Positions 15,018-64,000 of a stretch of DNA of 64,000 nt are shown piece after piece. The notes under the pieces were generated by a model that saw only the letters and a list, made by a program, of their open reading frames with translations, did no database searches and had not been told where the DNA came from. The stretch is from the NCBI GenBank assembly GCA_963714975.1, contig CAVQQD010000002.1, positions 1,120,001-1,184,000 of the forward strand, in the 5' to 3' direction. Each line of letters opens with the position of its first letter. Positions within the stretch are counted from its first letter, which is position 1. Made by a program: the position numbers and the translations under genes. Source of the DNA: an uncultured Gammaproteobacteria bacterium. Lineage in GTDB: Bacteria > Pseudomonadota > Gammaproteobacteria > JAURND01.

Positions 15018-16130
15018 ATGACTAATAAAAGAGACTATTACGAAGTATTGGGAGTTTCTCAATCAGCTTCGAATGAAGAAATTAAAAAAGCCTTTCGTGG
15101 TTTAGCGATGAAATATCACCCGGATCGCTATTCGGGTGATAAAGGCGAACAGTTCAAAGAAATAAAAGAAGCTTACGAAGTCTTAAGCGATAGCAAAAAA
15201 CGCGGGCTTTACGACCAATTCGGTCATGCTGGAGTTGCCGGAGCAGGCGGTGGCGCTGGCGCTCATGGTTTTGACTTTGGTGACATCAGTGACATCTTTG
15301 GGAATATCTTCGGTGACGCCTTTGGTGGCGGACGAAGAAGGCAAGCACAACGCGGGGCGGACTTAGTCTATAATTTGGAACTGAGTCTAGAAAATGCCGT
15401 ACATGGCACCGCGGTGCAAATTCAAGTGCCTACCTGGGTAGTCTGTACGGAATGCCATGGCTCAGGAGCTAAAAAAGGCAGTACACCTATCACTTGTTCT
15501 ACCTGCGGGGGACAAGGTCAAGTCTACATGCAGCAAGGTTTCTTCTCGGTCAGCCAAACTTGTCCCGATTGTCGTGGTGAAGGAAAAATTATCCGCGATC
15601 CCTGCCATCATTGTCGAGGGCATGGTCGAGTAGAACAAATTAAAACATTATCAGTTAAAATTCCCGCGGGCATTGATACCGGGGATAGAATTCGTCTCCA
15701 AGGCGAAGGCGAGGCGGGAATGCATGGATCACCTGCCGGTGATTTGTATGTGCAAATTAAAATCAAACCCCATCCTATTTTCACCCGCGAAGAAACCGAT
15801 TTACATTGTGAGGTTCCTATTAGCTTTAGCTGTGCTTGTCTAGGCGGCGAGATCGACATCCCTACTCTTGATGGGAAGGTGATGTTAAAAATCCCCGCAG
15901 AAACCCAAAGTGGTAAACTATTTCGCTTACGCGGCAAAGGCGTCAAATCGATTCGCAGTGGACGCGCCGGTGAGTTATTTTGCCGCGTTGTGGTAGAAAC
16001 GCCGGTAAATCTTACCCGCGAACAAAAAGATTGGCTCAAACAACTTGAAGAATCCTTAGAGAAAGGCGGTGAGAAACACAGTCCTAAATCTAAAACTTGG
16101 TTTGATAGCGTGAAACAGTTTTTTTCGTAG
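15018..16130 (+). CDS. dnaJ: Chaperone DnaJ
   Basis: HPD motif, G/F region, four CxxCxGxG. Confidence 0.98.
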
Positions 16131-16136
16131 ATTTTA

Positions 16137-16289
16137 CCTCTCCCCTTGTGGGGGAGGCCGCCGCGCCGTAAGGCGCGCGGGTGAGGGGTAAGCAGCAGTG
16201 AGCATTTAGCTAATAAAATGCTCCTTACTGGCTTTAAGTTTACCCCTCATCCGCCCTTTCGGGCACCTTCTCCCACAAGGGGAGAAGGA
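16137..16289. repeat. REPIN-like inverted doublet between convergent genes
   Basis: CTCCCCTTGTGGGGGAGG...TGAGGGGTAA / TTACCCCTCA...CTCCCACAAGGGGAG. Confidence 0.85.
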
Positions 16290-16329
16290 TTTTTACGCAC
16301 AAAGATGGAGGTCCATATATTGCGAATAG

Positions 16330-44809: not shown

Positions 44810-46517
44810 ATGTCCCTTATCAAGTCACCATTCTCGCCTGCTCAATTAAATCAATTAGAGCATATGGTTATGTCTCAAGGGGGACATGCTCTCAGTGAAG
44901 ACGCTGCGATCTTACTCTCCGATCGACATTGGTTCTATATTTATGAATTGGCGCAGGCCTTAAACAATACAGGTAATTGGATTAATTACTATACGAGACA
45001 GCCATTTAATACCTATGATGTAACTAGAATCAAAGAACTCATTAAAAATAAAAAAATCGGTATGAATGCACCTAACGAGCAGAAATTACCTACTTCCACA
45101 GAAGATGATCCTTTCCTAACTGCTGCGCTAAATATTGCCCAAGCAGAAGGCTACGAAATACCTTTTGCCAATAATTTTTTAGTAGATGAGCATATTAGGA
45201 ATCTAGTTTCATCAGGCAGATTAACCCAGGAACAAAGTTTGCCGACCGTTAGACAAATAGTACGGGCAATTGAGATGAATGAACGGTTGAGCGCCTGTTT
45301 TAGCCGAAACCTATTGAGTCTTACCCAGCTTCATGAGTGGGGGTCAATGGAGGCTACTCGTATAGCTAATATCGCTTACTCTGACTATACATGGGTCTTC
45401 GTTTGTGATGGTGCCCTTAGTCTCCGAACAAATTCGTGCATGGGGGGAAGCAGAAACTCTGAGGGTAGTTAATATTGCTAAACAATCCCATATTAGTAAA
45501 TATTTTGAACCCCCTCGTCCAGACCTACTTGATCCCTTACGCTTTGAACAAGAAATGACTCTTGCCGAAATTAAAATGTGGAATCCTCGTCAAATAGAGG
45601 TGGCGACTCGGGATTACAGGAATATTGATTTAAGTAATGAGGATTTAAGGGGCCTTGATCTTCGTGTGGCAAAAAATTTATCTCGAGCCTCTTCCTTGAG
45701 AGGAGTTAATTTATCCCACGCTAATTTGTCGGGCGTTAAGTTAGATAATCAAGATCTTCAAGGTGCGAATCTTTCCCATACTAACTTAAGCTTGGCTTGC
45801 CTCAATGGAGCCAATTTGCAAGGCGCAAATCTCTCCGGTGCCAACCTAAGTGGAGCTACATTTCGAGGAGCTTATTGTCAACAAGCCAACTTTTCGGCAG
45901 CTAATTTTAGCAGGCAGCGAATTCGAATATTTAATCAGCCAGGGAACAGGCTTTTAACAAGCTATCATGATCGAAGTGTAGACTTGACTGCTACAGATTT
46001 ACGCAATACAGTTGGAATGCCAAGACTAAGCACTCTGGGGGTTTACTCACCAGGTGCGCGCATAGACCATGATTTTTTTTGGCGCCCCCACTCGGATTGT
46101 CAAATAGCTACACATCAATTGACAGCAAAAGCTCATCATTTACGCGCACGAGGATATCTAAGAGAAGCTACAGCTGCAGAGCGGTTAACTTATTCCGATT
46201 CACACCCCAGAGAGGAACATCAGCTTGTAGAGTCGAGGAAGTTATTGTCGAAATTACGCGACAATAAAAAAACAGCTGGGCATCTGCTATTTGGCTTGAT
46301 TATTCTTTCTATGGTTACAGAAGGTAGTTTACAATTTACTCACTCGGGTAATATTTTTGAGCTAGAACCTCAAGCCGAGATATATTTAGCAATTGCTTTG
46401 TGTAGTACAGCTGTTTTAGCCCTCATGATCAAAAAAGCAGTGACTGGTAATGTATTCTGCTTTACTTCAGAAGCAGGAGAAATTGCTGATACGCTGTATG
46501 CATTAAAAGGCAGTTGA
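44810..46517 (+). pseudogene. Pentapeptide-repeat protein with C-terminal TM helices, frameshifted near 45420
   Basis: Two overlapping ORFs; ANLSG/ANLQG repeats in the second. Confidence 0.75.
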
Positions 46518-46835
46518 CATCCTCGCCCTGAAGAGCGAGGATTTCTACTGCTTTTAACCATCACCCCAAACCTGCACGATTCCTGCACGCTACTTCTATT
46601 TAAGGATCAATTTCCAAACTGTGTTTCTAGCCTTTCCTTGTTGCTCCAATAAACCTAAAGATTTTAAAACCGTAAAATCAGCTTTTATAGTCCTAAGACT
46701 TAATTTTTCCCCTAAACGATTATAAATTTCTTGAGCATTTAAAGCTTCTCCATAAGCAAGAATCTCCATTATTTTTTGCTGCCTATCGGTTAAAGTAATA
46801 TTTTCTTGCTTCTCAATTGATATTATTGGAGGCTT
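46235..46835 (+). repeat. 601-bp direct repeat, copy 1
   Basis: Near-identical to 61172-61772 (constant offset 14937). Confidence 0.95.
46596..46835 (-). pseudogene. Winged-HTH C-terminal fragment of an ATP-binding regulator-like gene
   Basis: LTDRQQKIMEIL...LSLRTIKADF..LKSLGLLEQQGKARNTVW; slightly longer in copy 2 (FKVIFRFP). Confidence 0.6.
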
Positions 46836-46854
46836 TATATTTAGTTACGAGATT

Positions 46855-47954: not shown

Positions 47955-50900
47955 ATGTTTAATTGTAGCCACAAATAATTATATGTCAAGCACTTAGGGT
48001 GACTTGGCCAACCATATTTCTTGTCTGAGCATCAGCCAATTCTTTTTTTTAAGAAAAAATTCTTAGTTTTTGTTGTTTTTCAATTTTGCATGAGTCACCT
48101 AATGCAGGGGCAGGGGCCATGAGGTTGAATTGATTGGATCAGCTGCAGATAAAAACTCGCTAATTCTTCAACAGTGTGAAACGGCACCGTACCTGTACCT
48201 ACTTCAATGCCCGGATCTTGAATGCCATATAAAGGCCGTTCTGGATCTAAGTATTTAGTTAATGAAATGTACCAAAATACCGTACCTCCAATGGGATGAA
48301 TCAAAAATAACGGTTTTTTTGAACCCTTTGGGTTTAAAGGAACTAGGCAACGAGGTAAAAGGTTTTTTTCGGCAATGGCTGTAGCGGCTAAAAAAGCCTG
48401 TTTTCCTCCCTAGATCGCGATACCAATTGGGCAAGCTGCGCAATCGTAGGGTTGGGTAAAAAATCACTCAAGGCGATAGGTGTTTTGAATTCCGCTTCGG
48501 TGACAGATAATAGTTTTAATGCCGAAAAAGAATTCCCTCCTAATTCAAAAAAGTGATCTTGTACACTGATAGAATGAATTCCTAATAGCTTTGACCAGAT
48601 AGATGATAGCGTTTTTTCTTCTAGGGTTTGAGGTGATATAAATTTTCGCTGTACATAATGCCCTTCCTCGGGCTGGGGGAGCGCTTTCTTATCAATTTTG
48701 CCATTCTTCGTTAATGGGAATTCAGCTAAAAACACATAAGCCCCTGGGATCATATAGGACGGTAAATAGTCCGCTAAATAATGACGCAATTGATTCGCCG
48801 TGATGGCTTGACTGCACGTCATATAGGCCGTTAAAAACGAGATCCCCTGCTGGATTAGAATGCGTAGTCACCAGAGCTTGTTTTACGCCTTGAAAATCAA
48901 GAATTCGTGCTTCAATTTCTCCCAGCTCAATGCGAAAGCCACGAATTTTCACTTGATCATCACTCCTGCCTTTATAGGCCAGCGTGCCATCGGGTAACCA
49001 CATGGCCAAATCACCTGAACGGTATAACGGTTCTGAGGGATGATCGATGAAAGGATTCGCCACAAATTTGTCTTGAGTCAACTGAAGTTTATTTAAATAT
49101 CCTTTCGCAACGCCACTGCCCCCTACATAAATCTCCCCGATCACATAGGGGGGCACAGGCAGCTGATTTTTATCTAAAAGATAAATAGCACGTTCCGGTA
49201 GCGGTTTACCAATAATCGAATACTCGGAGGTTTTGACATTTTCCTCGGTGAGAACATGATAAGTCGCATGAATCGTGGCTTCGGTGATTCCATACATATT
49301 GATGAGCTGAGGCTGTCGATAATCATGCCGTGCAAACCAAGGAGATAATGCAGATATTGATAATGCCTCTCCACCAAAAATGACATAACGCAGCAATAAC
49401 GATTGAGGCTGCATTTGGTCGATAGTCATCAATTGATAAAATACAGAAGGCGTGACATTCAATACTGTGATCGACCGCTCAACCATCCAACGATAAAAAT
49501 TTGAGAGGTCTTGCTGCATCGATGCAGGGACAATTTCTAATTTTCCACCATTTAGCAAGGCACCCCACATTTCCCAGACGGAAAAATCAAAATGAAACGA
49601 ATGAAACAACGACCAAGTATCTTGATCCGTAAAATGAAATAAAGATTGCGTAGCCACCATTAATTGTGTCACATTTCGATGCGTGATTAGCGTTCCTTTG
49701 GGATCACCAGTAGAACCTGAGGTGTACATCACATAGGCCAAATCATCAACGCTGACTCGAGGTAAAGAGAAAGAATTTTTCCCGACAAAACGACAGTCTT
49801 CGAGATAAACCACTCGCACAGAGCTTTGCAAATTGAGCGATTTTGAGGACAAAGTCTTCTTCTCGGTCAGTAAACAAGTTGCTTGACTGTCTTTGATTAG
49901 GTATTCAATGCGCTTGGGTGGATTCTGCGGATCGATAGGAAGATAGTGAGCACCCGCTTTTAAGCTGGCTAGAATCGCTACCAGCATCGATATACCACGT
50001 TCTAGATACAGGGCTAGTAACGTTCCAGACTTCACTCCCGCTTGCTGCAAGGCACAAGCCAGCCGATTGGCTTGATTTTCTAATTCACGATAGGTCAATT
50101 GTTTTTGCTCAAACACCACCGCTATTCGATGCGGATGCTTTTTGGCTTGTTGTGCAAATAAAGCGTGAATCGTTTGGGCAGAATCTCTAGAAGCTTGGTG
50201 TGGATTCCAATCATAGAGAATTTGTTGATATTCTTGAGTAGATAGCAAGGGTAATCTGTGGATGAGTTGCTCGGGATTCTGCAATAAAGTCGTCATTAAC
50301 CCTGCATAATGCGCAATCACCTGCTTTAATTTAGCGCTCTCCACCTTGGATACGTCATAAGAAAATTTAATCTGCGTTTCCTCCTGTTGAAAAACAGAAA
50401 TCGTCAAAGGGTAATGCGTAGAATCAACAATCGTAATATCATGAAAATTTATTTTTAAGGCAGAAATTCTTGCTTTGGGGTAATTTTCAACCACCAACAA
50501 GCTTTGTAATAAGTCTTGTAAATTTCGTGAAGCTGGATTCCAGGTTTGTATTTCCGATAAAAAAACATAACCATATTCCAGCACTTCGAGAATATTGCGT
50601 TGCACGTGCTTTAAATAATTTAAGGCAGTGTGTTCATTAGCAAAACGGATACGCAAAGGTAACGTATTGACCATTAAGCCAAGGATACGATCCCCCTGAA
50701 TATCACTTGGCCGCAACGAAAAGGAGATTCCAAAAATAACGTCATCAGTTTGAGTATATCGATGTAATAGTAAAGCCCAAAGCGCTTGGAAAAAAGTGTT
50801 AGCAGTTAAATGGTGAACCTTTAAAAAATTGTGAATCTCTTGTGTTAATTGCACCGGTAGCTTTAAAACATGATCAGCTGTTTGGTGTATTAAAGAAGAA

Positions 50901-53900
50901 GCGTTTTTTTCTTTCAACAAAAAATTTTGATAGCTTTCTTGATGCTCTATTCCCGACAAATACTGACTCCAAAATTGTCGAGCTCGTTCTTTTGGTTGTA
51001 ATTGTAACCAATGCACATAGGATGAAAAAGGAAGTGCCGGCGTTAATTTTAGCGTTTGTTGCTGCTGAAAACGGTGATAAATGGAATCCAATTCCTGCAT
51101 AAACAGAGAAAAAGACCAACCATCTAATAAAATATGATGAGTGGTTATCACCAAAATCCCTTGTCCTGGTCTGAGGTGAATCCAAGTTACACGAAGCAAG
51201 GACACTTCATCAAGAGCAAATCCTGCCTCTCGGTCGGCTAGGAGGAATTCTTGTAACGCTGTTTGTTGTTCTTTTCTAGAAACTCTTTCCCAGTGGTACT
51301 GATGCCAATGCAAATTACCTTTCGGTTCGGCCACTTGCAAAGGTTCACCACCTTGTTTCCACACAAAGCGGGTGCGCAGTATGTCATGGCGTGAAATCAA
51401 ATATTCAAACGATTGTTGTAGAATCGAAAGATTAATCGAAGCATCTAAAGTCCAATAAAATTGCACCACATAAGCGCTGGCATTCGGTGTAGATAATGCA
51501 TGGTAGAGCAAACCCTTTTGTAGCGGTGTGAGTGGATACCGCTGAGGGAAACTATTAGCTAGTTTATGAACTTGTTCTCTAATGCAGCTCAAAGATTGCT
51601 CTGGTTGGATCATCTGCAATAAATTTTTAAGATCAGCAAGAAAACGCTGCGCTAGTTTTGCGATGGTTGTGCGTCGATGAAAGTTGCGACTATAAGTCCA
51701 ACTCAACTCTAGCTGCTTATTTTTAATCACGGCATCGATAGTAATTAAATAGGGACGAATATTTTTGGGATGTGATAGCAATTTTAACTCGCCTATACTA
51801 AAGAAATTTTGTGCAAAGGCTTGATCCAATTGTCCCCAATAATTAAAAGCGATTTGTGATTGTTGATCTGCCGTACAGTCCGTCGTCTTGACAAAACGCC
51901 GTAAACCATAACTAATGCCATGGCGTGGTACCGCTTGCAATTGCTGCTGGACTGATTGGATGATTTCGAGTAGCGATAAATTTTTATTACAGCTTAATCG
52001 CAGAGGAAATACACTAGTAAACCAACCAAGAGTAGCAGATAAATTAATTTCCGTGGTTAATTCTTCACGACCGTGGCGTTCAATATCCAACGTGATGCAA
52101 TCTGTTTGACACCAGCGCATAAGGGATTTTGCCAACAAGGCAATTAGAATTTCATCGGTATTTAAGTGATGCGTTTTCGAAAATGTGCGCAGTAAGCTTT
52201 GAGTTTCTTCCACGGCTAATGTTACAGTGACATATTCAGCGGATTTTTCTATGTTAGTACCTTGTTGGTGATCAATAGGAATGGGCGTAAATGAATCAAC
52301 TCCTTGCCAATAGCCTTGCTCTTCTTTAAATTGCGAAGAAACTACATAGTTTTCAAGCGCGTAAACCCACTGTTGATAGGAAGTACTATTAGCAAATTTC
52401 TGCCAGTTAGTACCCCCCTCCTTCAATCCTGCATATAAACTTTGCAATTCATCTAAGAAAATTTGCCAAGAAACGCCATCCATAATCAAATGATGAGCCA
52501 CCAAAAGTAAATGGGTAATTTGCCCTTGCTGACGCACTAAGGCTACCTTGAGTAGATAGCCTGTCTCAAAATTAAAATTCTGGGCCACATTCATCGCCCA
52601 TTCATTCACAAAATCCTGAATTGGAACCAATCGGCTATCGATGACTGGAAAATCCGTACATAAGTCATGAACCTTATCGGCATAATATTGCTGCCAATTT
52701 CCTTGCTCCTTTTTAAATTGGAGGCGAAAAATTTCATGCCATTCAATAACTTCCCGCAAACAGCAAAGCAATAATTCTAAATCAACAGATTTTTGAAATT
52801 CTAACCAACAAATTTGGACAAATTGCTGCGGATGAGTGAATGATTGTTCAAAGAACCAGCGCTGAATCGGTGTTAAAGCAAAATTTTGGGCTAATGGCGC
52901 AGTTGGTTTTGTGGCGGTTTTTTCATGTAATCTTTTAACCAATTTTTTTATGGTGGATGCTTCAAATACATCTCGCACAGAACATTGCAAGCCTAATGCA
53001 TTGATTTTGGAAACCAAATGCATTGCTAAAATCGAGTCACCTCCCAGGAAAAAAAAGTCATCCTCTACACTGAGTGAATCAACCCCCAGTATTTTTTGGA
53101 AAATTTCTAGGAGTAATGTTTCTTTGGCTGACATAGGTCCTTGAACTGCTTGTTCATTAATGAGAGATGGTTTTTTGAGCAGTAAATTTTTATCAATTTT
53201 TCCATTAACAGTTCTTGGAAATCGAGCAACTTCAATTATTTTTGAGGGAACACTGTAACGAGCTAGCTGTTTTTTTAGAAAATGACTAAACTTCGCGATA
53301 TCGATTTTATTGCAGTTATTTTTCTTGATAAAAAAGAGTTTAATTTGGCTTTTTTCGGCTGTGGTATCTAGGCAAGCCACAGCTTGTAAAATATTCGGAT
53401 AAGCTACTGCTATTTGTTCTAATTCACTCAACTCTACCCGACAACCTAAAATTTTAATTTGTTCATCCATTCGGCCCATATATTCGAGATTACCATCCGG
53501 CAACCAACGAGCTAAGTCACCCGTTTTATACACTATCTGAGAGACCTCTTTGGTTCCATGCTCCAAAGACCAAGGTATAAATTTACTGTTAGTAAGGGCA
53601 TCTCGATTTAAGTATCCTTTTGCCAAACCATGTCCTGTGACGTACAACTCTCCAGTTATACCCATTGGTAAAGGTTGCATGTTATCATCTAAAATAAAAA
53701 TTTTAGTATTCGCAATCGGTTTACCAATAGTTATTTTGCTAATACTTGCACCCAAGGTTGCCATCGTGGCGCAGATCGTAATTTCGGTGGGCCCATAAGC
53801 ATTAACAAAAAGGGGAACGTTGACCCACTGCTTTACTATCGCCCTAGAACATGATTCACCCGCTGAAATAATTATCCGCAAATGGGAGGTAGAAGGTGGT

Positions 53901-55269
53901 GGAGTTATCGCTAGTATAGAAGGCACTAAAGTAGTGATAGTAATTTTATTTTTTTCTAGAAAATGCGTAAGTTTACTGCCTGGTAACAAATTTTCTTTCC
54001 TGGCCAGATATAAGGTTGCTCCTGCAAATAGACAGGGAAATATCTCCCACACAGAAGCATCAAAACTAAGGGTGGAAAAATTTAAGATTCTATCAGAGTG
54101 ATTAATGGCAAATTTTCGTAACTTTGCCAAGACCGTATTCACCACCGCCTGATGTTTAATAAGAACCCCTTTGGGTTTTCCCGTAGTACCTGAGGTGTAA
54201 ATGACATAAGCCAATTGAGAAGAGTCAAAATTTAAGCTAATAAATTCTTTGTTACGAATTTTGATATTTTTAATTTTATCAACCGTGATAATAGCGCCAT
54301 CTGTAATAGTATGTATTTTCTTAGCAAGACGAGATTGAGTAAGCACAAACAAAGCTCGACAATCCTCGAAAATGAACTTTATTCTCGCTCTTGGATACTC
54401 AGGATCAATCGGTACATAAACACCTCCAGCTTTTAAAATCCCCAAAATCCCAATAATCATTTCGATGCTGCGTTCCATGCAAATTGCGACTAAAGTTTCA
54501 GCTACCACCCCTTGTTGACTTAAGTAATGCGCAAGTTGATTGGCTTGTTGATTAAGCTCACGATAGGTGAGCGATTGATTTTCAAAACAAACGGCGATTT
54601 TATTGGGATGTTTTTGAACCTGTTCTTCAAATAATTGCGGAATAGTTTTATCGCGTGGATAGTCTGTTTCAGTTTGATTCCAATCAATTAAGATTTGCTG
54701 CTGTTCTTGGGGTGTAAGTAGCACTAAATCGGCAATGGGAGTTTCTGGTTGCGTGGTAATGGCGGTTAGCAAGGTTTCTAAATGGCCGGGCATTTGTTGC
54801 AGAATAGTTTTCAAATAGAGTTCTTGTGCTACGCAATTTTGATCGACATACCAAGACAAACTAGAATCCTTGGCAGATATTACCAACACTAAAGCGGCAC
54901 GAGATTTTTGTAGCTGTTCGATTTCTCGCATAACAACGGCAGTAAATACCGTTTCTTTGACTTCGGTTAAATTCGGATAACGATAAAATATATCGGGTAA
55001 ATAACTGCCTTTTTGTTGCATAGCAAGTAACTCAGCTTGTAATTGGGTCACAACTTGGCCGAAGTGTAATCCGTTTTGCAAGGCAGTGAAATACGGTAGT
55101 TCTAAATTTTGATCAGGTAATTGCAGCAGCACCCCTACTTTGGGTTGGTTGCCGAGACGATAGAGGTAGACGATCCAGAGGGCTAACAGCAAGGTGTTGA
55201 AATCATGAGTAGGGTAATGTTGGTGTAATAATTTTTGTAAAGGGGTGGGGAGGGTCCATTGTTGTAAAT

Positions 55270-55708
55270 ACCCCCTCTCCCTAACCCTCTCCCACCTTCC
55301 CTCGCTAACGCTCGGGCGGGGGAGAGGGGACTGGAGACTTCCTTCTCCCCTTGTGGGAGAAGGTGCCCCTTCGACAGGCTCAGGGTAGGCTGGCGGATGA
55401 GGGGTGAATTCTGAGGGTTCTCCCCTCATCCGGCCTGCGGCCACCTTCTCCCACAAGGGGAGAAGGAATGAGGACTTATTTTCGAGGTGATTAAAATTCA
55501 GGAAGGGAATTTTGGCAGGCTCTATGGATTGCCATTGGGAAACCCAGTAGGCTTCATCGCCTCCTTCGCTCCAGCATAATCCTTCGACCTTATTCCTTCT
55601 CCCCTTGTGGGAGAAGGTGGCCGCAGGCCGGATGAGGGGTGAACCATCCAAGCTCTCCCTAACCCTCTCCCACCTTCCCTCGCTGACGCTCGGGCGGGGA
55701 GAGGGGAT
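55270..55708. repeat. Cluster of about five REP-like units inserted in the NRPS
   Basis: CCCTCTCCCTAACCCTCTCCCACC.., CCTTCTCCCCTTGTGGGAGAAGG.. and CCCCTCATCCGGCCTGCGGCCACC.. units. Confidence 0.9.
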
Positions 55709-55883
55709 AAAGACACTGCATCACCTTCTAAGGTACAAATCTGCCGAATAGCAATGTCGCAAGTAGCGGTCGCAATGCGCCAATAGTCCGCAGTAACAGC
55801 AACTATGGTTCCAGGAGCTTCAGTCGATAGCTCCGGTAATAGCTCTAATTGGGTGATAATGAATTCATCTTCCCAGCTTCCTT

Positions 55884-55940
55884 GCTGGGATGACGGTTCC
55901 TCCTGCTGGAACGACGGTTCGCCCAGCTGGGATGACGACA
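55884..55940. repeat. Three ~21-nt GCTGGGATGACG-type tandem repeats in frame in the formyltransferase region
   Basis: Encodes SSQLGEP SFQQEEP SSQQGS. Confidence 0.75.
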
Positions 55941-56699
55941 ACTTAAATTTCGGGCAAGTAAAGCGATTAGGATAGGAGCCAAATTGAGTAGCCCGAAATA
56001 ATCGCTCAATAGCTTCGGCACTGGCATTCCAATCAATCCACCCATTACCAGCAGGTTTTTGATGGAGACCAAAATAGGTACGTTGACTTAAATCTTGGGG
56101 TTGGCGCTGGTAATCATGATTGACTAAGGATTTCACTAACTCAGAGAAGCTTTGCAGTGCCGCTTCGTAGCATTTGAGATTTAAGCTTAGTGCAGTTTCA
56201 TCTTCAGTAATCGGCACCATCACTTGCTGCAAAATATCACCGGCATCGACGGTTTCAATGGCCACATGCCAGGTGATGCCATGGGTCTTTTCTTGATTTA
56301 AGATCGCCCAGGAAGTGGCCTGAACTCCGGCATATCGCGGTAAAGGGGCATCATGAAAATTAATCGCCAATTGCCGAGGCAGATTGAGTATCGCCGCAGG
56401 CAAAATTTGCGAATTAACAATACTAAATAAATAATCAAAAGGAGTCTTGTTGAGTGCTTCTTGGGTGGCTGCTAATGATGCGTAGTGAGGAATTCCCTGT
56501 TGCAAGGCCCATAGTTCTGCGGCTTCATATGCAGAGATAATGCCTAGTATTTGCTGTCCTTGTTGTTGGATAATTTTGGCACATTCCAGATGGAGATTAT
56601 CCTCTCCAATGATAAAACAAGTGAAAATAGGGGACATAGGGTTGAAATGACTTCACGTTGGGTTTTTAAATTTTCCCTCCTCATAAATTCCTAACAAAT

Positions 56700-56860
56700 T
56701 TGTCATTCTAAGCGAAGCGAAAGACCTCCCCCCTGACCTCCTAGTCCTTACAGGACTAATTTGTCAGGAACAAAACTGTCACATCCCTGTGGGTGGATCC
56801 TGACCTCCTTGCCAGGACGACGCTTACTAGGAGGCCCTTCGGTTCGCTCAGAATAACAAT
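56700..56860. repeat. REP pair with nested hairpins upstream of the NRPS
   Basis: TGTCATTCTAAGCGAAGCGAAAGACCTCC / GGAGGCCCTTCGGTTCGCTCAGAATAACA. Confidence 0.75.
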
Positions 56861-57943
56861 AGGTTGGCCCTGTCGCACTTGCGGTGCTGCCCAACCACGA
56901 TGACAGTCTACTAGCTTAAGGAAAAATTAACAAGTGTAGCAAAAGATTTATAAAAGAAGCGGAAATGGAAAGCAGAGGGGTGATGGGCCACTTGAGAATA
57001 GATCAGTTGGATGAGAAGTCAAAATCTAAGATAAGCCGCCCTTAAGAAAAATTTGCATTTCAGTCAAAGTCAATGAATAATAGCAAACCTCGGGGGCTTG
57101 CGCCTCCGAGGCCGCGCCAAAAGAATGTTGATAGCATTCTTGAGGCACTTCCATAATCAATTAACCTAATACGAGGTTAACCGAAGATGGCCCAGAAAGC
57201 TTACTTCATTGCGTGTTCGTGTAAAACTCTTTTTTCGATGTTGCCCACATTTTTTTACCTGGATTCTCCTAGGCGAATTGTTCACGCCTGGGAAAATTCG
57301 CTTGCATCCCATGGAATTTCCTCGACTGTCTTCGGTGGATTATGGGCTTGGGGTGCTAAGTTACCGGTTTTTTGGTGGCCAACATCGATGCAGAGAGGGG
57401 TAAGCAAGTAAGAGAGGAACGGTATGGCGGGGTGATTTATATCGCCTCGCCATCCTAAAATCTTCTGCTTGCCTACCCTGGTTCGATGCTTTTTTCGCAT
57501 CCACCCAGGAACGCGCCGATGACTCCGAAAAAAATCAAACCCGTTTTCAAATACGAACAAACTAACGCGCCAATTCCGTTCGATCAGGCGCATTGTTTAC
57601 TGACGATTAGCGTCGGCCAAGAAGTGCATGAAGGCGAGCCATTCGCAGCGACCGTAGCTTTGGTGCGTCAGCAATTTGCGCGATGCACTCTGCTGATTGA
57701 CGATACCCTGCAGCGCCACACCCTGGCATTATTGCACCCTGAACGCCGGGCGGAAGATTTTTTAGCCAGCGCACAACAAGAAGGCGAAGCGTGGTTAGCA
57801 CGCAATCACTCTACTTATCAGCATTTACCACAGCTTAAAATAGTCCAGTGGGATGATTGGTTAAACCATCCGCGTTATCCCGCCACCTTTCGACGCGTTA
57901 ACTATTTAGTGACTCAACACTCCGCTTACCAACACGCTATCAA

Positions 57944-59655
57944 CCTAAAAACGGCAGTTGAAGGACTTCCTAACCGATAAAACTCTGATCAAATATCTTC
58001 CAACAAAGTACCTTTTTTTCAATTTTATGTGGGTGCTGATAAACCAAGTGGTGGCTGCAGCGACTTTCCATTTAAATATTTTCCTACTGCTTGGCTCAAA
58101 ATTCGATACCAACATTGATCATGTGTTAACTGCTCCGCATCTTTTTTTAATCCTTTAAAAAATTTCACCACGCGGCTTAATAACATTTGAACTTTATTAA
58201 TATTTCCATGCGTGCTGCTGATAACAATGTGTGTTTGTCTTGCATGGACAGTTTGTTTTGCCATAGCATGCAATAATAAGGGACGACTCGTAATAGCTTC
58301 TAAATGTTTGTCAGGTTCTGCCAGGCGAGCAAATATATTCCACCAATTATAAATAAGAGCAACCACGCGCGACATAAAGCGGCAACGCTTCATGTCTTGG
58401 GTTGTAAACCCGCTCCAACCCCATTGATTTTTCAATTCATCAAATATATTTTCACTGTCCGCACGATCGCGATAATGTTGCGCAATAGTCAGTATTTCAT
58501 CCGGTAATGAAGTAACTAATACAGCGTATTCATAAACATAGGTTTTATCATCAACCTCACCAAAACATATCTCTAATTGTTTTGTTCCTGCATGTTGTGA
58601 AATAAGCATTAAATTTTTTTGTATTTTTTTTCTCAACACGATGACTCGACGCGATCTTTCCCAACCATCTAATTTCAATAAGGCATCAGTCCCTTCCCAG
58701 CCCTGATCAGCAAAATACCAATCTTGACGAACCATTTTTACTTCTTCTATTAAACGCTTTACATTCTTCGTTGATTTCAATTTAAATAAATAGGGTATTT
58801 GCTTTTCTTCAGCAATTTTCATCACACCATCTGTACCAAAAGCACAATCACCTCGCAAAAATTGAGGCCACTGTGCACGCGGAATACGATCTAATAATTC
58901 CCATAAATCAGGCGCCGAATAACTGGATGCCATTTGATTACCAGGCTGTACTTCAACATCCAGTACTAAACGTAAATTGGCGATAAAATAGGAATGATAG
59001 GTATGAGAAGGGCGGCCAGGTTTTGTTGGATTATAACCCAATACAGCTCCTTCCTGTTTTCCATAAAGTACTTTAACTGTGGTATCAACATCTAATATCC
59101 ATGGCACACTCAGCAATGGCACATAACATTTATTTAAATGTTTTTGTAGCCATACTATTCCAGCTTCTTCTTCCATTTTTACAAAAGCACGCCGGAGTGA
59201 ATCTTCACTCACTATTTTTTTCATACCCAATAAATCTGGATTTACTCCATCACAACGCAATGTAGTGATATGAGCATAGCGACTATGACCTGCTAAAACA
59301 GCTAATAACAGCGTACCTAAAATGTCACGATTTGAAGGAGCGTTGGGACTTACTAATTGCAATGGACAATCTTCAACCCAAGGGTCAAATAAATTTCCAA
59401 TCTTTAAAAATTCAATAAAAAATGCCAATTGTCCTAGCGGAGTTACAGCAGCTTGAGGATCCCATTCCACATAGATGCGACCACCAAAAGTATCTAGGGC
59501 TAATGAGACATTTTTGGCTAATAAATTTTCTTCTTTTAAGTCTTCTGGCAGTTCACCCGTTGGGTGAAGAGGAGCCGGAGGTAGTTTCATGCGATTTCCC
59601 CTGTAATTTTGTTATAAGGGTCGCATTATCTCATAGTTCAACTGCTTTTTTTAGG
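57944..59655 (-). mobile_element. IS1380-family insertion sequence, 1712 bp
   Basis: TIRs CCTAAAAACGGCAGTTGAA / TTCAACTGCTTTTTTTAGG; 5-bp TSD ATCAA at 57939-57943 and 59656-59660. Confidence 0.9.
58025..59590 (-). CDS. IS1380-family DDE transposase
   Basis: LDVDTT..LYGKQEGA..GYNP, LRGDCAF, YRDRADSENIFDELK. Confidence 0.9.
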   Translation of the reverse strand: MKLPPAPLHPTGELPEDLKEENLLAKNVSLALDTFGGRIYVEWDPQAAVTPLGQLAFFIEFLKIGNLFDPWVEDCPLQLVSPNAPSNRDILGTLLLAVLAGHSRYAHITTLRCDGVNPDLLGMKKIVSEDSLRRAFVKMEEEAGIVWLQKHLNKCYVPLLSVPWILDVDTTVKVLYGKQEGAVLGYNPTKPGRPSHTYHSYFIANLRLVLDVEVQPGNQMASSYSAPDLWELLDRIPRAQWPQFLRGDCAFGTDGVMKIAEEKQIPYLFKLKSTKNVKRLIEEVKMVRQDWYFADQGWEGTDALLKLDGWERSRRVIVLRKKIQKNLMLISQHAGTKQLEICFGEVDDKTYVYEYAVLVTSLPDEILTIAQHYRDRADSENIFDELKNQWGWSGFTTQDMKRCRFMSRVVALIYNWWNIFARLAEPDKHLEAITSRPLLLHAMAKQTVHARQTHIVISSTHGNINKVQMLLSRVVKFFKGLKKDAEQLTHDQCWYRILSQAVGKYLNGKSLQPPLGLSAPT

Positions 59656-59990
59656 ATCAAGCTAACCATTAGCACTTTTTTACAGCGTTACACTCAACGT
59701 CTGTCCCCTGAAATATTGAGACAATTTAATTACGCCCGTGCCCAGGAATTATGCCGGAATTATGTCCTGGAAGAATGCACCGCGCTTTGTTTATGGCCGG
59801 AATTGCAGTGCCATTATGAGGTCTACCCCAGCCCACACAATGCCGCGATGACTTATACGCATCAACAATTTCTGCTCCCGCGCTATCCCGATTTATTACA
59901 CCCGATCTCGATTAAGTTTAAGCAGCGCAAGCAGTTCAAGCCGCAGCGCTTTGACTGCTTACCGCCCACTCAAGCAGAAGGAGTGATGAA

Positions 59991-61171
59991 ATGACCCTCA
60001 ATTTATTTTATATTCCCGAAATTATTTTTAGCTCGGCGCTTTTTATCAATGCCCTGCTGTTTATTCCACAATTTATCAAAATCCTCAAAGAAAAAACTGC
60101 CCAGGAAGTTTCCTTGCTGACCTTCGTCGGCTTTTGGCTAATTCAAGCCACCATTGTCTGGCACGGTTTTTTGCAGAGGGATTGGTGGTTGGTGTGGGGT
60201 TATATCTTCAGCATGTTCACCTGTGGCGCAGTGATTGTGGGCATTATTTTATATCGACAGCGTCCGCCCCCTGCCTCGCTGCAGGACCAATACGAATTAC
60301 TCGACAATTTATTAGCGATCCTGCCAGAGCATTTGTATTGGATCGATCGCAAGGGGCGGTATTTAGGTTGCAATAATCAGCAAGCCGAATCCGCAGGCCT
60401 GGCTTCGCGTGAAGACATTGTGGGCAAGCGCAATAGCGATTTGCCCTGGAATATCAATGCCGGGCAATTACCCGAAACTTTAGATGCACTCCATCAAAAA
60501 ATCATGTGCACCGGTGAGGCACAGGTTGTCGAAGAACCAGCGGTGTTGCCCAATGGCCGCGAAGCAATTTTTCTCTCTCACAAAGTGCCGCTACATCGTC
60601 GCGGTCAAATTGTGGGGATGGCCGGTGTTTCGATTGATATTACCCGCCCGCATTGAAGCCGAAAAGGCGTTGCTGCAAGCCTTGCAAGCCAAAGACGATT
60701 TTCTGCACAATATCAGTCACGATTTGCGTACTCCGTTTTGTGGTCTGGTGACCATGACGGAATCACTGGCATTAAATGAGGAAAATCCAGAACGGAAAAT
60801 GGGACTGCAATGCATCATGGATTCGGCCGAAGCCTTACTCACTCATCTCAATGAAATTTTAGACTATGTGCGCTCCACAGCCGGCACCCCGGTGAGCCAA
60901 GTGGCTTTTGATTTACCGGCCCTGGTGCAAACCACCTATGCCATGTTGGCTCCAACCGCCCAAGCCAAGCAATTACATTTTACCTGGGAAGTGACCCAAT
61001 CCCTGCCCACCAGTGTTTGTGGTGATCGGCTGCGCACCCAGCAAATTTTGTTACATGTTCTTGCCAATGCAATCAAATTCACACCCAAAGGCTTTGTGCG
61101 CTTGCAAACCGCGGTTGAATCTGAACAAGAACACCACTGGTTAATTCGCTTCACCGTAAGCGACAGCGGCA
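59991..61171 (+). pseudogene. PQ-loop (SemiSWEET-like) 3-TM / PAS / HisKA / HATPase sensor kinase, frameshifted at ~60645 and 3'-truncated
   Basis: LFIPQFIKI, LYWIDRKGRYLGCN, NISHDLRTP, NAIKFT, VSDSG then break; ATGA overlap with the CDPS stop. Confidence 0.85.
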
Positions 61172-61772
61172 GAGGAAGTTATTGTCGAAATTACGCGACA
61201 ATAAAAAAACAGCTGGGCATCTGCTATTTGGCTTGATTATTTTTTCTATGGTTACAGAAGGTAGTTTACAATTTACTCACTCGGGTAATATTTTTGGGCT
61301 AGAACCTCAAGCCGAGATATATTTAGCAATTGCTTTGTGTAGTACAGCTGTTTTAGCCCTCATGATCAAAAAAGCAGTGACTGGCAATGTATTCTGCTTT
61401 ACTTCAGAAGCAGGAGAAATTGCTGATACGCTGTATGCATTAAAAGGCAGTTGACATCCTCGCCCTGAAGGGCGAGGATTTCTACTGCTTTTAACCATCA
61501 CCCCAAACCTGCACGATTCCTGCACGATACTTCTATTTAATGATCAATTTCCAAACGGTGTTTCGAGCTTTTCCTTGTTGCTCCAATAAACCAAAAGATT
61601 GTAAAACCGTTAAATCAGCTTTAATAGTCCTAAGGCTTAATTTTTCCCCTAAACGATTATAAATTTCTTGAGCATTTAAAGCTTCTCCATAAGCAAGAAT
61701 CTCCAATATTTTTTGCTGTCTATCGGTTAAAGTAATATTTTCTTGCTTCTCAATTGATATTATTGGAGGCTT
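61172..61772 (+). repeat. 601-bp direct repeat, copy 2
   Basis: See 46235-46835. Confidence 0.95.
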
Positions 61773-61958
61773 AATGCTTTTGGGAAATCGAAATATGACT
61801 TTAAATTCGGATGTGGATGGGAGTGAGACATATTTAGTTGTTTGGATTTGCTCCGTAGGGTCCCGGGATCAAAATATTGGCTCTTTAAGGCTTGGGCCAT
61901 CACGAAATTAAATTCCGTCAATTCTTTGACTAAATGTTCCATTTCTTCGGCGGATTCA

Positions 61959-62430: not shown

Positions 62431-62507
<77 letters not shown>

Positions 62508-62553: not shown

Positions 62554-64000
62554 CTATTCCTTTTCTAGATCAGTGAAACTAATAAGCCTTTCCGCACGGC
62601 TGGGATGACGCAATTTACGTAGCGCTTTAGCCTCAATTTGACGAATGCGTTCGCGGGTGACATCAAATTGCTTTCCTACTTCTTCTAAGGTGTGATCCGT
62701 ATTCATATCAATACCAAAGCGCATACGCAAGACTTTAGCTTCGCGCGTGGTGAGAGAAGAAAGCACATCCTTAATTGCTTGTTGCAAACCAGCAATCGTC
62801 GCCGCATCAATGGGCGATTCTTGATCACCTTCAATAAAATCACCTAAATGAGAATCATCATCGCCATCTTGCCCAATCGGGGTTTCCATCGATATAGGTT
62901 CTTTAGCAATTTTCATTACTTTACGAATCTTATCCTCGCTCATCTCCATTAAAACGCTGAGTTCTTCTGGGGTGGGTTCTTGACCAGTCTCTTGCAAAAT
63001 TTGTCGCAGCAATGCGGCTCAACTTATTGATTGTCTCAATCATGTGAACCGGAATGCGGATGGTACGGGCTTGATCTGCAATTGAACGAGTAATGGCTTG
63101 ACGAATCCACCAGGTGGCATAAGTTGAAAATTTATATCCGCGGCGATATTCAAATTTATCGACCGCTTTCATCAAACCAATGTTACCTTCCTGAATTAAA
63201 TCCAAAAATTGCAAACCTCGGTTCGTATATTTTTTCGCAATTGAAATGACCAAACGCAGATTAGCTTCAATCATTTCTTTTTTCGCACGTCGTGCTTTCG
63301 CCTCCCCAATCGACAAGCGACGATTAATTTCTCTAATCTCGGGTATCATTAACCCTGCTTCTTCTTCTAGTGCAATCAATTTTCGTTGCAATCGAGCTAC
63401 ATCTTGCGCGAATGGTTTTAACAAAGATGCTCGATTTTTATGGATTTTGATATAAGAATCAAACCATTCTAAATTGGTTTCATTGTTGGGAAAAGAACCA
63501 ATAAAAGATTTGCGGGGAGTATTACCTTGAACGACACTAATATTTAAAATAGCTCGCTCATGCGCCCGTACCTGATCCAGCATGTCGCGTATCTTGCGGA
63601 TTTGGCGGGAAAATAATTTAGGTGCTAATTTACATCCTGAAAATACCTCTTGCAGCTTTTTCAAAGCTTGATCAGTATTTTGATGTTTCTTACCATACTG
63701 ATTGCGTGCAGCTAGATATCCCTGCTGCAATGCGGCCAATTCCTGAAAATATTGCTTGGCGACTTCAGGATCTGGGCCGGTATCGAGTATTCCACCTTCT
63801 TCTCCTCCACCACCGCCTTCTTCATCTTCCTCTTCTGCTCCAGCAGGCAAAGCAGCCACTTCTTCTGGCATTGGAAGCTCACCTACCACCTCAGTGCTAG
63901 CTTCTTCACTGGCTAAGAAACCAGTAATCACATCACTTAAGCGCTTTTCATCTTTTAAAGCTTTTCCATATTCTGATAATACCGAATCAATAATCTTGGG
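62554..64000 (-). CDS. rpoD: RNA polymerase sigma70 RpoD, 5'-partial, apparent 1-nt insertion near 63010
   Basis: [34 protein letters not shown], then [10 protein letters not shown] in another frame. Confidence 0.96.

Follow-up and report, generated by a model that had tools for sequence, protein, structure and literature searches.

What does a cyclodipeptide synthase (CDPS) do when its gene runs straight into that of a sensor histidine kinase? CDPSs are treated as secondary-metabolite enzymes, and the role of their products in Legionella, Rickettsiella and relatives has been an open issue since CDPSs were recognised there in 2010. To approach this question we analyzed such a locus in a stretch of 64,000 bp of an uncultured Gammaproteobacteria bacterium (assembly GCA_963714975.1, contig CAVQQD010000002.1, positions 1,120,001 to 1,184,000; here referred to as the window), together with its paralogs in the same genome and its relatives elsewhere. 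The kinase combines a membrane module of the PQ-loop kind with a PAS domain. The family to which the locus belongs is a conserved, uncharacterised synthase-channel-sensor module and represents a variant of the synthase/sensor-kinase signalling systems.

The comparisons described below establish what the parts are, that their linkage is conserved and has been rearranged repeatedly, that they occur as fusions and that the paralogs are under purifying selection. From these we infer a CDPS product that serves as the signal, is bound by the PAS domain and is carried by the PQ-loop unit. The kinase adjoining or fused to the synthase is a direct candidate for what the CDPS product does, and the product is a candidate defined ligand for an orphan PAS sensor family abundant in these bacteria. 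The window copy itself is a dead pseudogene, with a CDPS split by an insertion sequence (IS), a frameshifted and truncated kinase and no receiver gene. It matters only as a pointer to the cassette family.

Synthase, kinase and the paralogous cassettes

Deletion of the IS and of one copy of its target-site duplication ATCAA joined the two CDPS parts of the window (Table 1) into 141 + 1 junction + 110 = 252 codons. The first-pass annotation of this DNA had proposed this restoration with the motifs ISVGQ, YVLEE and VYP, and all three were found in the rejoined sequence. Its assignment of the enzyme to the XYP kind held as well. In a phmmer comparison with the PDB, residues 9-141 of the N half matched 5ocd_A 13-145 (E 1.4e-27) and residues 3-88 of the C half matched 5ocd_A 149-231 (E 2.6e-18). 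Both halves were colinear with 5OCD, further matches were 5mlq, 9i5m, 9iam and 5mlp, and the segments ISVGQ, Y-x-x-EEC and EVYPS aligned identically or nearly so with the motifs of 5OCD. Following the AlbC literature, we take the catalytic Ser to lie in the ISxGQ strand, Y-x-x-E-E to form the corresponding helix and Y-P to belong to the XYP signature. Judged by these homologs the window gene is an XYP-type CDPS.

Aminoacyl-tRNAs are the substrates of CDPSs. The accessible part of a 2026 review describes 5OCD as the cyclo(Gly-Gly) (cGG) synthase of Fluoribacter dumoffii (Fdum-CDPS), 5MLQ as the cyclo(Ala-Glu) (cAE) enzyme of Nocardia brasiliensis (Nbra-CDPS) and 5MLP as the enzyme of Rickettsiella grylli (Rgry-CDPS). 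Furthermore, the XYP CDPS of Legionella lansingensis produces cyclo(Gly-Glu) (cGE). Since the characterised relatives make cGG, cAE and cGE, this group of enzymes yields small polar products.

The overlap between the CDPS stop and the kinase start (ATGA) that had been reported is genuine, the kinase ATG being located at 59991-59993 and the CDPS TGA at 59992-59994. For the kinase, an order of a PQ-loop module with three transmembrane helices (3-TM), PAS, HisKA and HATPase had been predicted. The first three were confirmed, whereas HATPase_c is truncated in the window (profile positions 1-48 of 111) and the frame is broken. With Pfam the PQ-loop match of kinase residues 1-221 reached 21.6 bits, slightly below the gathering cut-off of 22, and HisKA was found in the frame downstream of PAS (E 1.3e-11). 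Neither a complete HATPase_c nor a receiver was found in the window cassette by Pfam and by comparison with the paralogs; paralog B has both.

Paralogs were sought by tblastn and blastn in the source genome (2.56 Mb, 93.75% complete, three contigs). In total five paralogous cassettes were present. Four of them, A (in the window), B, C and D, are located on contig 2, and the fifth, E, is located on contig 3. The CDPS is intact in B, C and D and the kinase in B, C, D and E. Paralog B consists of the CDPS, a 465-aa kinase, a 131-aa receiver made up of REC only (E 1.7e-19) and a small open reading frame (ORF) without family. Its kinase carries a PQ-loop at 23.1 bits (cut-off 22), PAS_4, HisKA (2.3e-11) and a full HATPase_c (4e-26). 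Convergent to paralog B lie an integrase and a Ser/Thr kinase of eukaryote-like type that contains ankyrin repeats, and a gene for a non-ribosomal peptide synthetase (NRPS) with a formyltransferase is located divergently upstream. ORF168 gave no lead in Pfam, NCBIfam or Atlas.

Pairwise Nei-Gojobori estimates of nonsynonymous (dN) and synonymous (dS) substitution among the paralogs gave a dN/dS of 0.08-0.15 for the kinase (dS 0.24-0.50) and of 0.11-0.16 for the CDPS (dS 0.30-0.60). By these estimates the cassettes are old duplicates under purifying selection. The pair had also been called mobile, which was not shown: the five copies are old duplicates that differ by a dS of ~0.24-0.6. Within the kinase, dN among paralogs was highest in the membrane module (0.04-0.13) and low in PAS (0.007-0.036). 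The catalytic and pocket-bearing segments of the CDPS are invariant in A-D, and 52 variable positions are located elsewhere. The variable positions spare the catalytic segments, which makes one common product of all paralogs probable. Five orthogonal signal-receptor pairs were considered as well and are ruled out by the invariance of these segments.

Two older remnants were detected on contig 2 (961314-961933 and 615169-616150). Here, a 5' fragment of the CDPS, reaching to about residue 77 or 34, joins a receiver gene directly. Both receivers are intact and under purifying selection when compared with the cassette receivers (dN/dS ~0.1, dS 0.7-1.1). The apparent phospho-acceptor Asp, assigned by eye, is replaced by Asn (NLNLSDL) or Glu (NLELLDL) in the receivers at contig 3, 799488-799880 (cassette E), and contig 2, 961541-961933; the counterpart segment of copy B reads TLDLPDL.

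Linkage of synthase, PAS kinase and PQ-loop unit in other genomes

Three of nine genomes of the same order, the source genome counted, carried a CDPS, and a PAS kinase follows it in both others. One genome per species was then scanned, which yielded 19 CDPS loci in which PAS was sought within 6 kb. All 16 non-actinobacterial loci had a PAS or PAS-kinase in this range, one of them as a 25-residue fragment at the contig edge, and a PAS kinase was present in none of the three actinobacterial loci within the same distance. Among the 16 are loci of Legionella parisiensis, bozemanae, anisa, dresdenensis and resiliens, of a Tatlockia metagenome-assembled genome (MAG) and of MAGs of Coxiellaceae, Francisellaceae and Legionellales. 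A metagenome scan gave 18 CDPS loci, a few of which are near-duplicates of each other, and PAS was found within 5 kb in 15. Two of the remaining contigs end within or just past a PQ-loop gene, and the third has a weak CDPS match with nothing beside it. Only 5-9 PAS kinases of this kind occur per genome (E<=1e-20), so that a 12-kb interval would be expected to contain one by chance in a few per cent of cases. Conserved adjacency elsewhere had been proposed as a check of the pair, and it was found both for the CDPS with the PAS kinase and, in many loci, for PQ-loop genes or fusions adjoining the CDPS.

The structural composition of the loci was less uniform. CDPS and kinase are arranged co-directionally, convergently or divergently. 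In the Legionella species the pair is convergent, with a hybrid kinase that includes a receiver of its own; likewise the receiver, REC-only in the source genome, is fused to the kinase as a hybrid in relatives. A PQ-loop gene lies beside the CDPS in 10/18 metagenome loci. It occurs free-standing upstream of the CDPS (locus L017 and five further loci of its order), free-standing between CDPS and kinase (L100, L103, L104 and L105 with 87-98 aa; L015, where it is split) and fused to the kinase (five times in the source genome and in L029, with a 183-aa PQ-PAS ORF in L097). Two CDPS genes around a single PAS kinase were seen in L053 (in tandem) and in L100 and L102 (flanking on the opposite strand). 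Locus L016 (425-3569, genome G005) carries a free-standing 90-aa PQ-loop gene, a 423-aa protein and a PAS-PAS kinase at a distance of 6.7 kb from a CDPS-kinase pair. This set may represent a second PQ-loop-linked sensor with a different partner.

The PQ-loop subfamily was followed through 22 genomes of the order of L017 by a profile search, with loci extending 1.5 kb to each side of the match. It was present in 14 of these genomes at 27 places, corresponding to 24 loci. CDPS and PAS-kinase occurred together in six loci and PAS without CDPS in three; the other 15 contained housekeeping genes only, with no CDPS or PAS within 1.5 kb.

A search for longer relatives of the CDPS identified three CDPS-PAS-kinase fusions of 988, 863 and 892 aa, which are 42-43% identical to the CDPS across 88-91% of its length. 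The CDPS motifs are located at the N-terminus, followed by PAS_4 and the kinase core and in one protein by a receiver. No Pfam PQ-loop match and, by eye, no long hydrophobic stretch was found in the fusions (a transmembrane predictor was not run). Taken together, CDPS-kinase and PQ-loop-kinase fusions link all three modules pairwise via the PAS kinase. The hosts have small genomes, ranging from 0.8 to 2.7 Mb, and are probably intracellular bacteria.

The relationships of the kinases were analyzed from 92 PAS-plus-core segments with IQ-TREE, run by its quick method and with SH-aLRT as the only measure of support; the tree does not include copy E and duplicate rows, and the genomic context of 50 rows is unknown. 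CDPS-linked kinases are concentrated in one clade of 39 rows (support 90), where they make up 14 of the 16 rows of known context, compared with 2/15 among the remaining rows of that class. The source genome also has four PAS kinases outside the cassettes, and these cluster apart. The kinase core resembles ArcB, BarA, TorS and LuxQ. That all CDPS-linked kinases form one ancient clade was ruled out by this tree.

The membrane module and the proposed circuit

The PQ-loop fold claimed for the membrane module was confirmed by several lines of evidence, beginning with the Pfam match of paralog B given above. An AlphaFold2 model of paralog B residues 1-105 (56-row alignment) had a mean predicted local distance difference test score (pLDDT) of 91.4 and helices at 5-34, 42-61 and 65-89. 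In a Foldseek comparison with the PDB the first 11 matches listed (ranks 1-13) were all SemiSWEETs with a probability of 1.00, a target-normalised TM-score of up to 0.86, a root-mean-square deviation of 1.5-1.7 Å over ~80 residues and up to 31% identity; the E values for this short model were only 3.8e-3 to 6.5e-2, none being below 1e-3. Additionally, the family profile matched eight SemiSWEET sequences (E 1.4e-11 to 2.3e-7). On the basis of model and matches the module has a PQ-loop/SemiSWEET fold. A predicted complex of two copies of the module scored 0.29 against a mark of 0.42, which speaks neither for nor against dimerisation.

In the accessible part of Lee et al. (2015) EcSemiSWEET is described as a uniporter in which Trp50 and Asn66 line the pocket and Thr15 is located behind the Trp. 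These residues correspond to I55, Y71 and N20 of the kinase in the HMMER alignment. We tabulated the pocket in 33 family members, which are related sequences, so that the counts are not independent. Trp was found at the Trp50 position in 0/33 members (I, V, T, A, F, G or M instead) and Asn at the Asn66 position in 0/33 (Y, F, M, W, T or V). Gln52, Asp64 and Gly70 are invariant in 33/33, and P26-Q27 is conserved in 31/33. Asn20 is kept in 15/15 CDPS-linked sequences with a residue at that column and in 20/20 such sequences that adjoin a CDPS or a PAS kinase, whereas Lys or His occupies the position in 7/13 sequences adjoining neither. Since the sugar-pocket residues are replaced and Asn20 and Gln52 are kept, the ligand of the PQ-loop unit is predicted to be polar and not a sugar. 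The altered pocket would thereby provide a bacterial PQ-loop protein with a non-sugar substrate. Related genomes also contain canonical Trp/Asn SemiSWEETs, separate from this family (L052, L058).

A search of a library of 1.84 billion representatives with the PQ-loop module gave 204 matches at E<=1e-3. Among the best 150, 42 were longer proteins (325-938 aa) that begin with the module. Together with paralog B (n=43) these contained PAS_4 in 41, HATPase_c in 38, PQ-loop in 35 (E<=1e-3) and HisKA in 30 cases, a receiver in 14 and Hpt in five; the names of their sources were generic only. A metagenome scan with a single PQ-loop protein found no relative. The linker between TM3 and PAS is short, variable in length and sequence and rich in Pro, Ser and Asn (RQRPPPAS in the window copy).

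Based on these results we propose a synthase-channel-sensor circuit with a cyclodipeptide signal read by PAS, for which we consider the chances to be evenly balanced. The CDPS would make a small polar diketopiperazine from two aminoacyl-tRNAs. Such molecules should cross membranes poorly, as cGG, cAE and cGE are small and polar. The PQ-loop unit, which probably pairs in a SemiSWEET-like manner when the kinase dimerises, could allow facilitated diffusion across the inner membrane, out and back in. The cytoplasmic PAS domain would then bind the cyclodipeptide and set the activity of the kinase. Finally, the phosphate would be passed to a receiver without DNA-binding domain, a phosphorelay output as in hybrid quorum-sensing kinases.

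Several observations weigh against this circuit. Pfam gave no match of its CDPS model at E<=0.01 for either window half or for an intact paralog, and NCBIfam TIGR04539 reached only 19.8-21.1 bits, below its cut-off of 45; the identity of the CDPS thus rests on PDB homologs. The profile and structure searches named by the first-pass annotation as a possible refutation came out in its favour, returning the PQ-loop fold and, via the PDB though not via the curated hidden Markov models, the CDPS. The PAS domain has only a weak match among solved PAS structures (BvgS, E 0.0048). The CDPS-linked kinases do not form one clade; the label requires at least eight changes and falls in two kinase classes, so that the pairing was rebuilt or partners were swapped. 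As 15/24 loci in the order of L017 lie beside housekeeping genes, the PQ-loop subfamily is broader than the CDPS link and not dedicated to CDPSs. In the loci of the genus Legionella the CDPS/PAS-kinase pair occurs without a PQ-loop of this subfamily, and none was found in the two whole genomes searched; the channel is thus not always needed or is supplied otherwise. The synthase-sensor fusions are as compatible with an autocrine or regulatory role as with signalling between cells. Furthermore, the related genomes compared are non-independent samples.

Among the other explanations the most probable, although on balance unlikely, is that PAS senses another cue (redox, oxygen, or a host or nutrient signal) and the kinase controls production or export, with the cyclodipeptide as a metabolite or host-directed compound and the PQ-loop as its exporter. 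Biosynthetic clusters commonly include regulators and exporters. The cassette of the source genome stands head to head with a formyltransferase-NRPS gene and beside eukaryote-like ankyrin Ser/Thr kinases. Aravind et al. (2010), in the part of that paper accessible, described the occurrence of CDPSs in both Legionella and Rickettsiella and proposed that they serve to manipulate the host, with CDPS products of intracellular bacteria acting on the host cell. However, the locus has no DNA-binding response regulator, the receiver being REC-only or part of a hybrid kinase, unlike typical cluster-situated regulators, and the NRPS neighbour is specific to the source genome. Transcriptional control alone hardly explains a covalent CDPS-PAS-kinase fusion.

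The first-pass annotation had instead regarded the PQ-loop domain itself as the receptor. Acting as a transceptor, it would signal to the kinase by way of PAS. This we consider improbable. In its favour, 42 representative clusters have the unit fused N-terminally to PAS kinases, among the paralogs it evolves faster than any other domain of the kinase, the residues of its sugar pocket are exchanged but Asn20, Gln52 and Asp64 remain, and fusions of transporter and kinase have precedent in the accessible accounts of the CbrA 'transceptor' and the SLC5/STAC kinases. Nevertheless, the PAS kinase is the constant partner: the Legionella loci carry the CDPS/PAS-kinase pair without PQ-loop, the three CDPS-PAS-kinase fusions have no Pfam PQ-loop match, and the unit is often a separate gene of 87-98 aa. 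The variable linker between TM3 and PAS differs from a conserved signalling helix. Because of this linker, the PQ-less pairs and the frequent separate genes, PAS is favoured over the PQ-loop as primary detector. On this evidence the cytoplasmic PAS domain is probably the conserved sensor, and the PQ-loop unit appears more likely to be a channel for a small polar cyclodipeptide than a receptor.

An intracellular gauge, in which CDPS output would track aminoacyl-tRNA supply, the cyclodipeptide would act as second messenger read by the PAS kinase and the PQ-loop would vent it and set its lifetime, would agree with the substrates of CDPSs, with the three single-protein fusions lacking an evident membrane segment and with the probably intracellular, small-genome hosts, but appears very unlikely, since a dedicated uniporter-like unit in many loci suggests a molecule meant to cross the membrane and five parallel copies with invariant catalytic segments are not obviously needed.

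Thus, the synthase-channel-sensor circuit read by PAS remains our preferred reading, and the interpretation first given to the locus is partly supported. In a wider version, which we regard as improbable, Legionella-like intracellular bacteria would possess a signalling pathway not described so far, with tRNA-derived cyclodipeptides as its dedicated messengers. The CDPS would convert the supply of particular charged tRNAs into a diketopiperazine, the SemiSWEET-derived unit, either free or part of the kinase, would gate its passage and may report its occupancy, and the PAS kinase would feed a phosphorelay. If true, the SemiSWEET-derived unit would constitute a second structural class of bacterial transceptor, and a single module would couple amino-acid status and cell density.

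Surroundings of the window copy and comparison with known systems

The features of the window cassette are given in Table 1.

Table 1. Features of cassette A and adjacent regions (positions in the window)
Feature	Position	Strand	Remarks
Divergent NRPS: formyltransferase ORF 55522-56637, then A-T-C-A ORF 48722-55651	48722-56637	-	5' part 51618-56955 in repeated unit
Intergenic region, formyltransferase-NRPS to CDPS	56638-57518		kept (~78-87%) in other cassettes
5' CDPS part	57519-57943	+	codons 1-141 plus 2 nt; ISVGQ with putative catalytic Ser
Insertion sequence, 1712 bp	57944-59655	-	terminal inverted repeats and DDE transposase
3' CDPS part	59661-59994	+	1 nt, 110 codons, stop; YVLEEC and EVYPS
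PQ-loop / SemiSWEET-like membrane module, three helices, kinase residues ~5-89	60003-60257	+	PQ motif P26-Q27
PAS domain (PAS_4), residues 111-219	60321-60647	+	E 3.2e-11
C-run with one extra C	60642-60644	+	from alignment to paralogs B and E
HisKA (~60688-60885) and start of HATPase_c	60652-61171	+	homology to paralogs ends at 61171
604-bp duplicate (97%) of window 46235-46838	61172-61775	+	takes the place of kinase 3' end, receiver and small ORF

The IS has terminal inverted repeats of 19 nt (57944-57962 and 59637-59655, 89% complementary), and the target-site duplication was read from the sequence at 57939-57943 and 59656-59660. Its transposase ORF (58025-59590, minus strand, 521 aa) matched DDE_Tnp_1_4 of Pfam (E 7e-25). 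Genome-wide, the same IS was found in seven full-length copies at 99-100% identity, the window copy counted, in one copy at 85% and as a fragment of 194 bp.

In the kinase gene, the extra C at ~60642-60644 shifts the frame to a stop at 60654-60656 and leaves the ORFs 59991-60656 and 60484-61236. The view that this copy is broken is in agreement with our analysis: the IS in the CDPS and the extra C are joined by the end of the kinase at 61171 and the missing receiver. A further frame break was seen in rpoD (62554-64000, minus strand), which is split into the overlapping frames 62554-63012 and 62930-64000+ near 63000-63010, after the KLSRIA segment. This suggests assembly indel errors or real decay and bears on the trust placed in the extra C. 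Given the rpoD break, single-base frame breaks in this three-contig assembly may be errors, whereas the IS and the kinase truncation cannot be.

The 604-bp direct duplication (97%; 46235-46838 and 61172-61775) is derived from the 3' end of the gene of a 370-aa pentapeptide-repeat protein (45405-46517). It brackets a segment of 14.3 kb holding the NRPS, the CDPS and the truncated kinase, which looks as if it had been inserted or rearranged as a block. A tRNA gene (62434-62507, minus strand, Rfam 74.3 bits) is located beside short phage-like ORFs at 61.5-62.4 kb and may mark an old integration site. Furthermore, a repeat of ~180 bp at 16130-16308, by its look similar to miniature inverted-repeat transposable elements, occurs in more than 30 copies with 87-97% identity on all three contigs.

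The NRPS with its N-terminal formyltransferase (48095-56637, minus strand) shares 85-88% with copies B and E and is broken in the window. Its formyltransferase ORF and the 2309-aa A-T-C-A ORF are in different frames and overlap around an extra stretch at ~55570-55715, and its C-terminal part is broken into pieces (48095-48822) with frames of their own. On its flanks, every cassette has one to three Ser/Thr kinases of eukaryote-like type that contain ankyrin repeats (Pkinase E 1.2e-46), together with an integrase of the tyrosine-recombinase type (contig 2, 7526-10483, corresponding to L010 4526-7483; equivalents in C, D and E). Ankyrin-repeat Ser/Thr kinases and integrases are typical of host-interacting intracellular bacteria. 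There is a hint that the repeated unit is an island.

With the solved XYP CDPSs (5OCD, 5MLQ, 5MLP) the CDPS of the cassette shares the colinear sequence over both halves and the motifs. It differs from them in the IS-split window copy and in the linkage of the cassette CDPS to a kinase and not to tailoring enzymes. The membrane module shares the three-helix bundle and the PQ motif with the SemiSWEET uniporters (EcSemiSWEET 4X5M/4X5N, 4RNG, 4QNC and BjSemiSWEET 9KAX). In contrast to these, Trp50 and Asn66 are replaced, a conserved Asn stands for Thr15, and the unit forms part of a PAS histidine kinase or has a gene of its own next to a CDPS. No paper on a PQ-loop or SemiSWEET joined to a histidine or sensor kinase was found in a full-text search judged by titles and abstracts. 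The SemiSWEET-like unit on ~40 sensor-kinase clusters is thus an input module for which we found no description.

A search of the same kind, with subscription journals outside its reach, gave no description of a CDPS/sensor-kinase pairing with the exception of Skinnider et al. (2018). The accessible part of that study already noted PAS domains near CDPSs, suggested quorum sensing and drew a parallel of the VqmA/LuxR type. The earlier statement that no characterised example was known is therefore in line with the literature found, except that the vicinity of PAS domains had been noted before.

CqsA-CqsS of Vibrio and LqsA-LqsS-LqsR of Legionella resemble the cassette in that the gene of a small-molecule synthase adjoins that of a sensor kinase. 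Their synthase is a pyridoxal phosphate (PLP)-dependent acyl transferase, their receptor has six transmembrane helices and their signal is an alpha-hydroxyketone. In the cassette, the synthase is a CDPS, the sensor is SemiSWEET-like with 3-TM and PAS, and the product would be a tRNA-derived diketopiperazine. The output by a receiver without DNA-binding domain or by a hybrid phosphorelay is alike. By Pfam/NCBIfam domain content there was no homology to CqsA/LqsA or CqsS/LqsS, only a generic kinase core similar to LuxQ, ArcB and BarA. The adjacency of synthase and kinase expected of a quorum-sensing pair is conserved across lineages (16/16 and 15/18 loci, fusions). CAI-1/CqsS is mentioned in the accessible part of a quorum-sensing review.

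Cytoplasmic receptors for pyrazine- or diketopiperazine-type autoinducers are known from Vibrio cholerae (3,5-dimethylpyrazin-2-ol (DPO) and VqmA) and Shewanella baltica (diketopiperazine (DKP) and an orphan LuxR). VqmA binds DPO through its PAS domain. Unlike the cassette kinase, VqmA and the Shewanella LuxR are transcription factors and not histidine kinases, and their signals do not derive from a CDPS encoded next door. Both pairs are listed in the accessible text of the same review.

Finally, CbrA, CrbS and RpuS, the SLC5/STAC histidine kinases, are similar in that an N-terminal membrane transporter is fused to a PAS-containing kinase. As far as the available accounts of them extend, the transporter is there a 13-TM SLC5 symporter with a STAC linker, whereas here it is a 3-TM PQ-loop unit needing a dimer.

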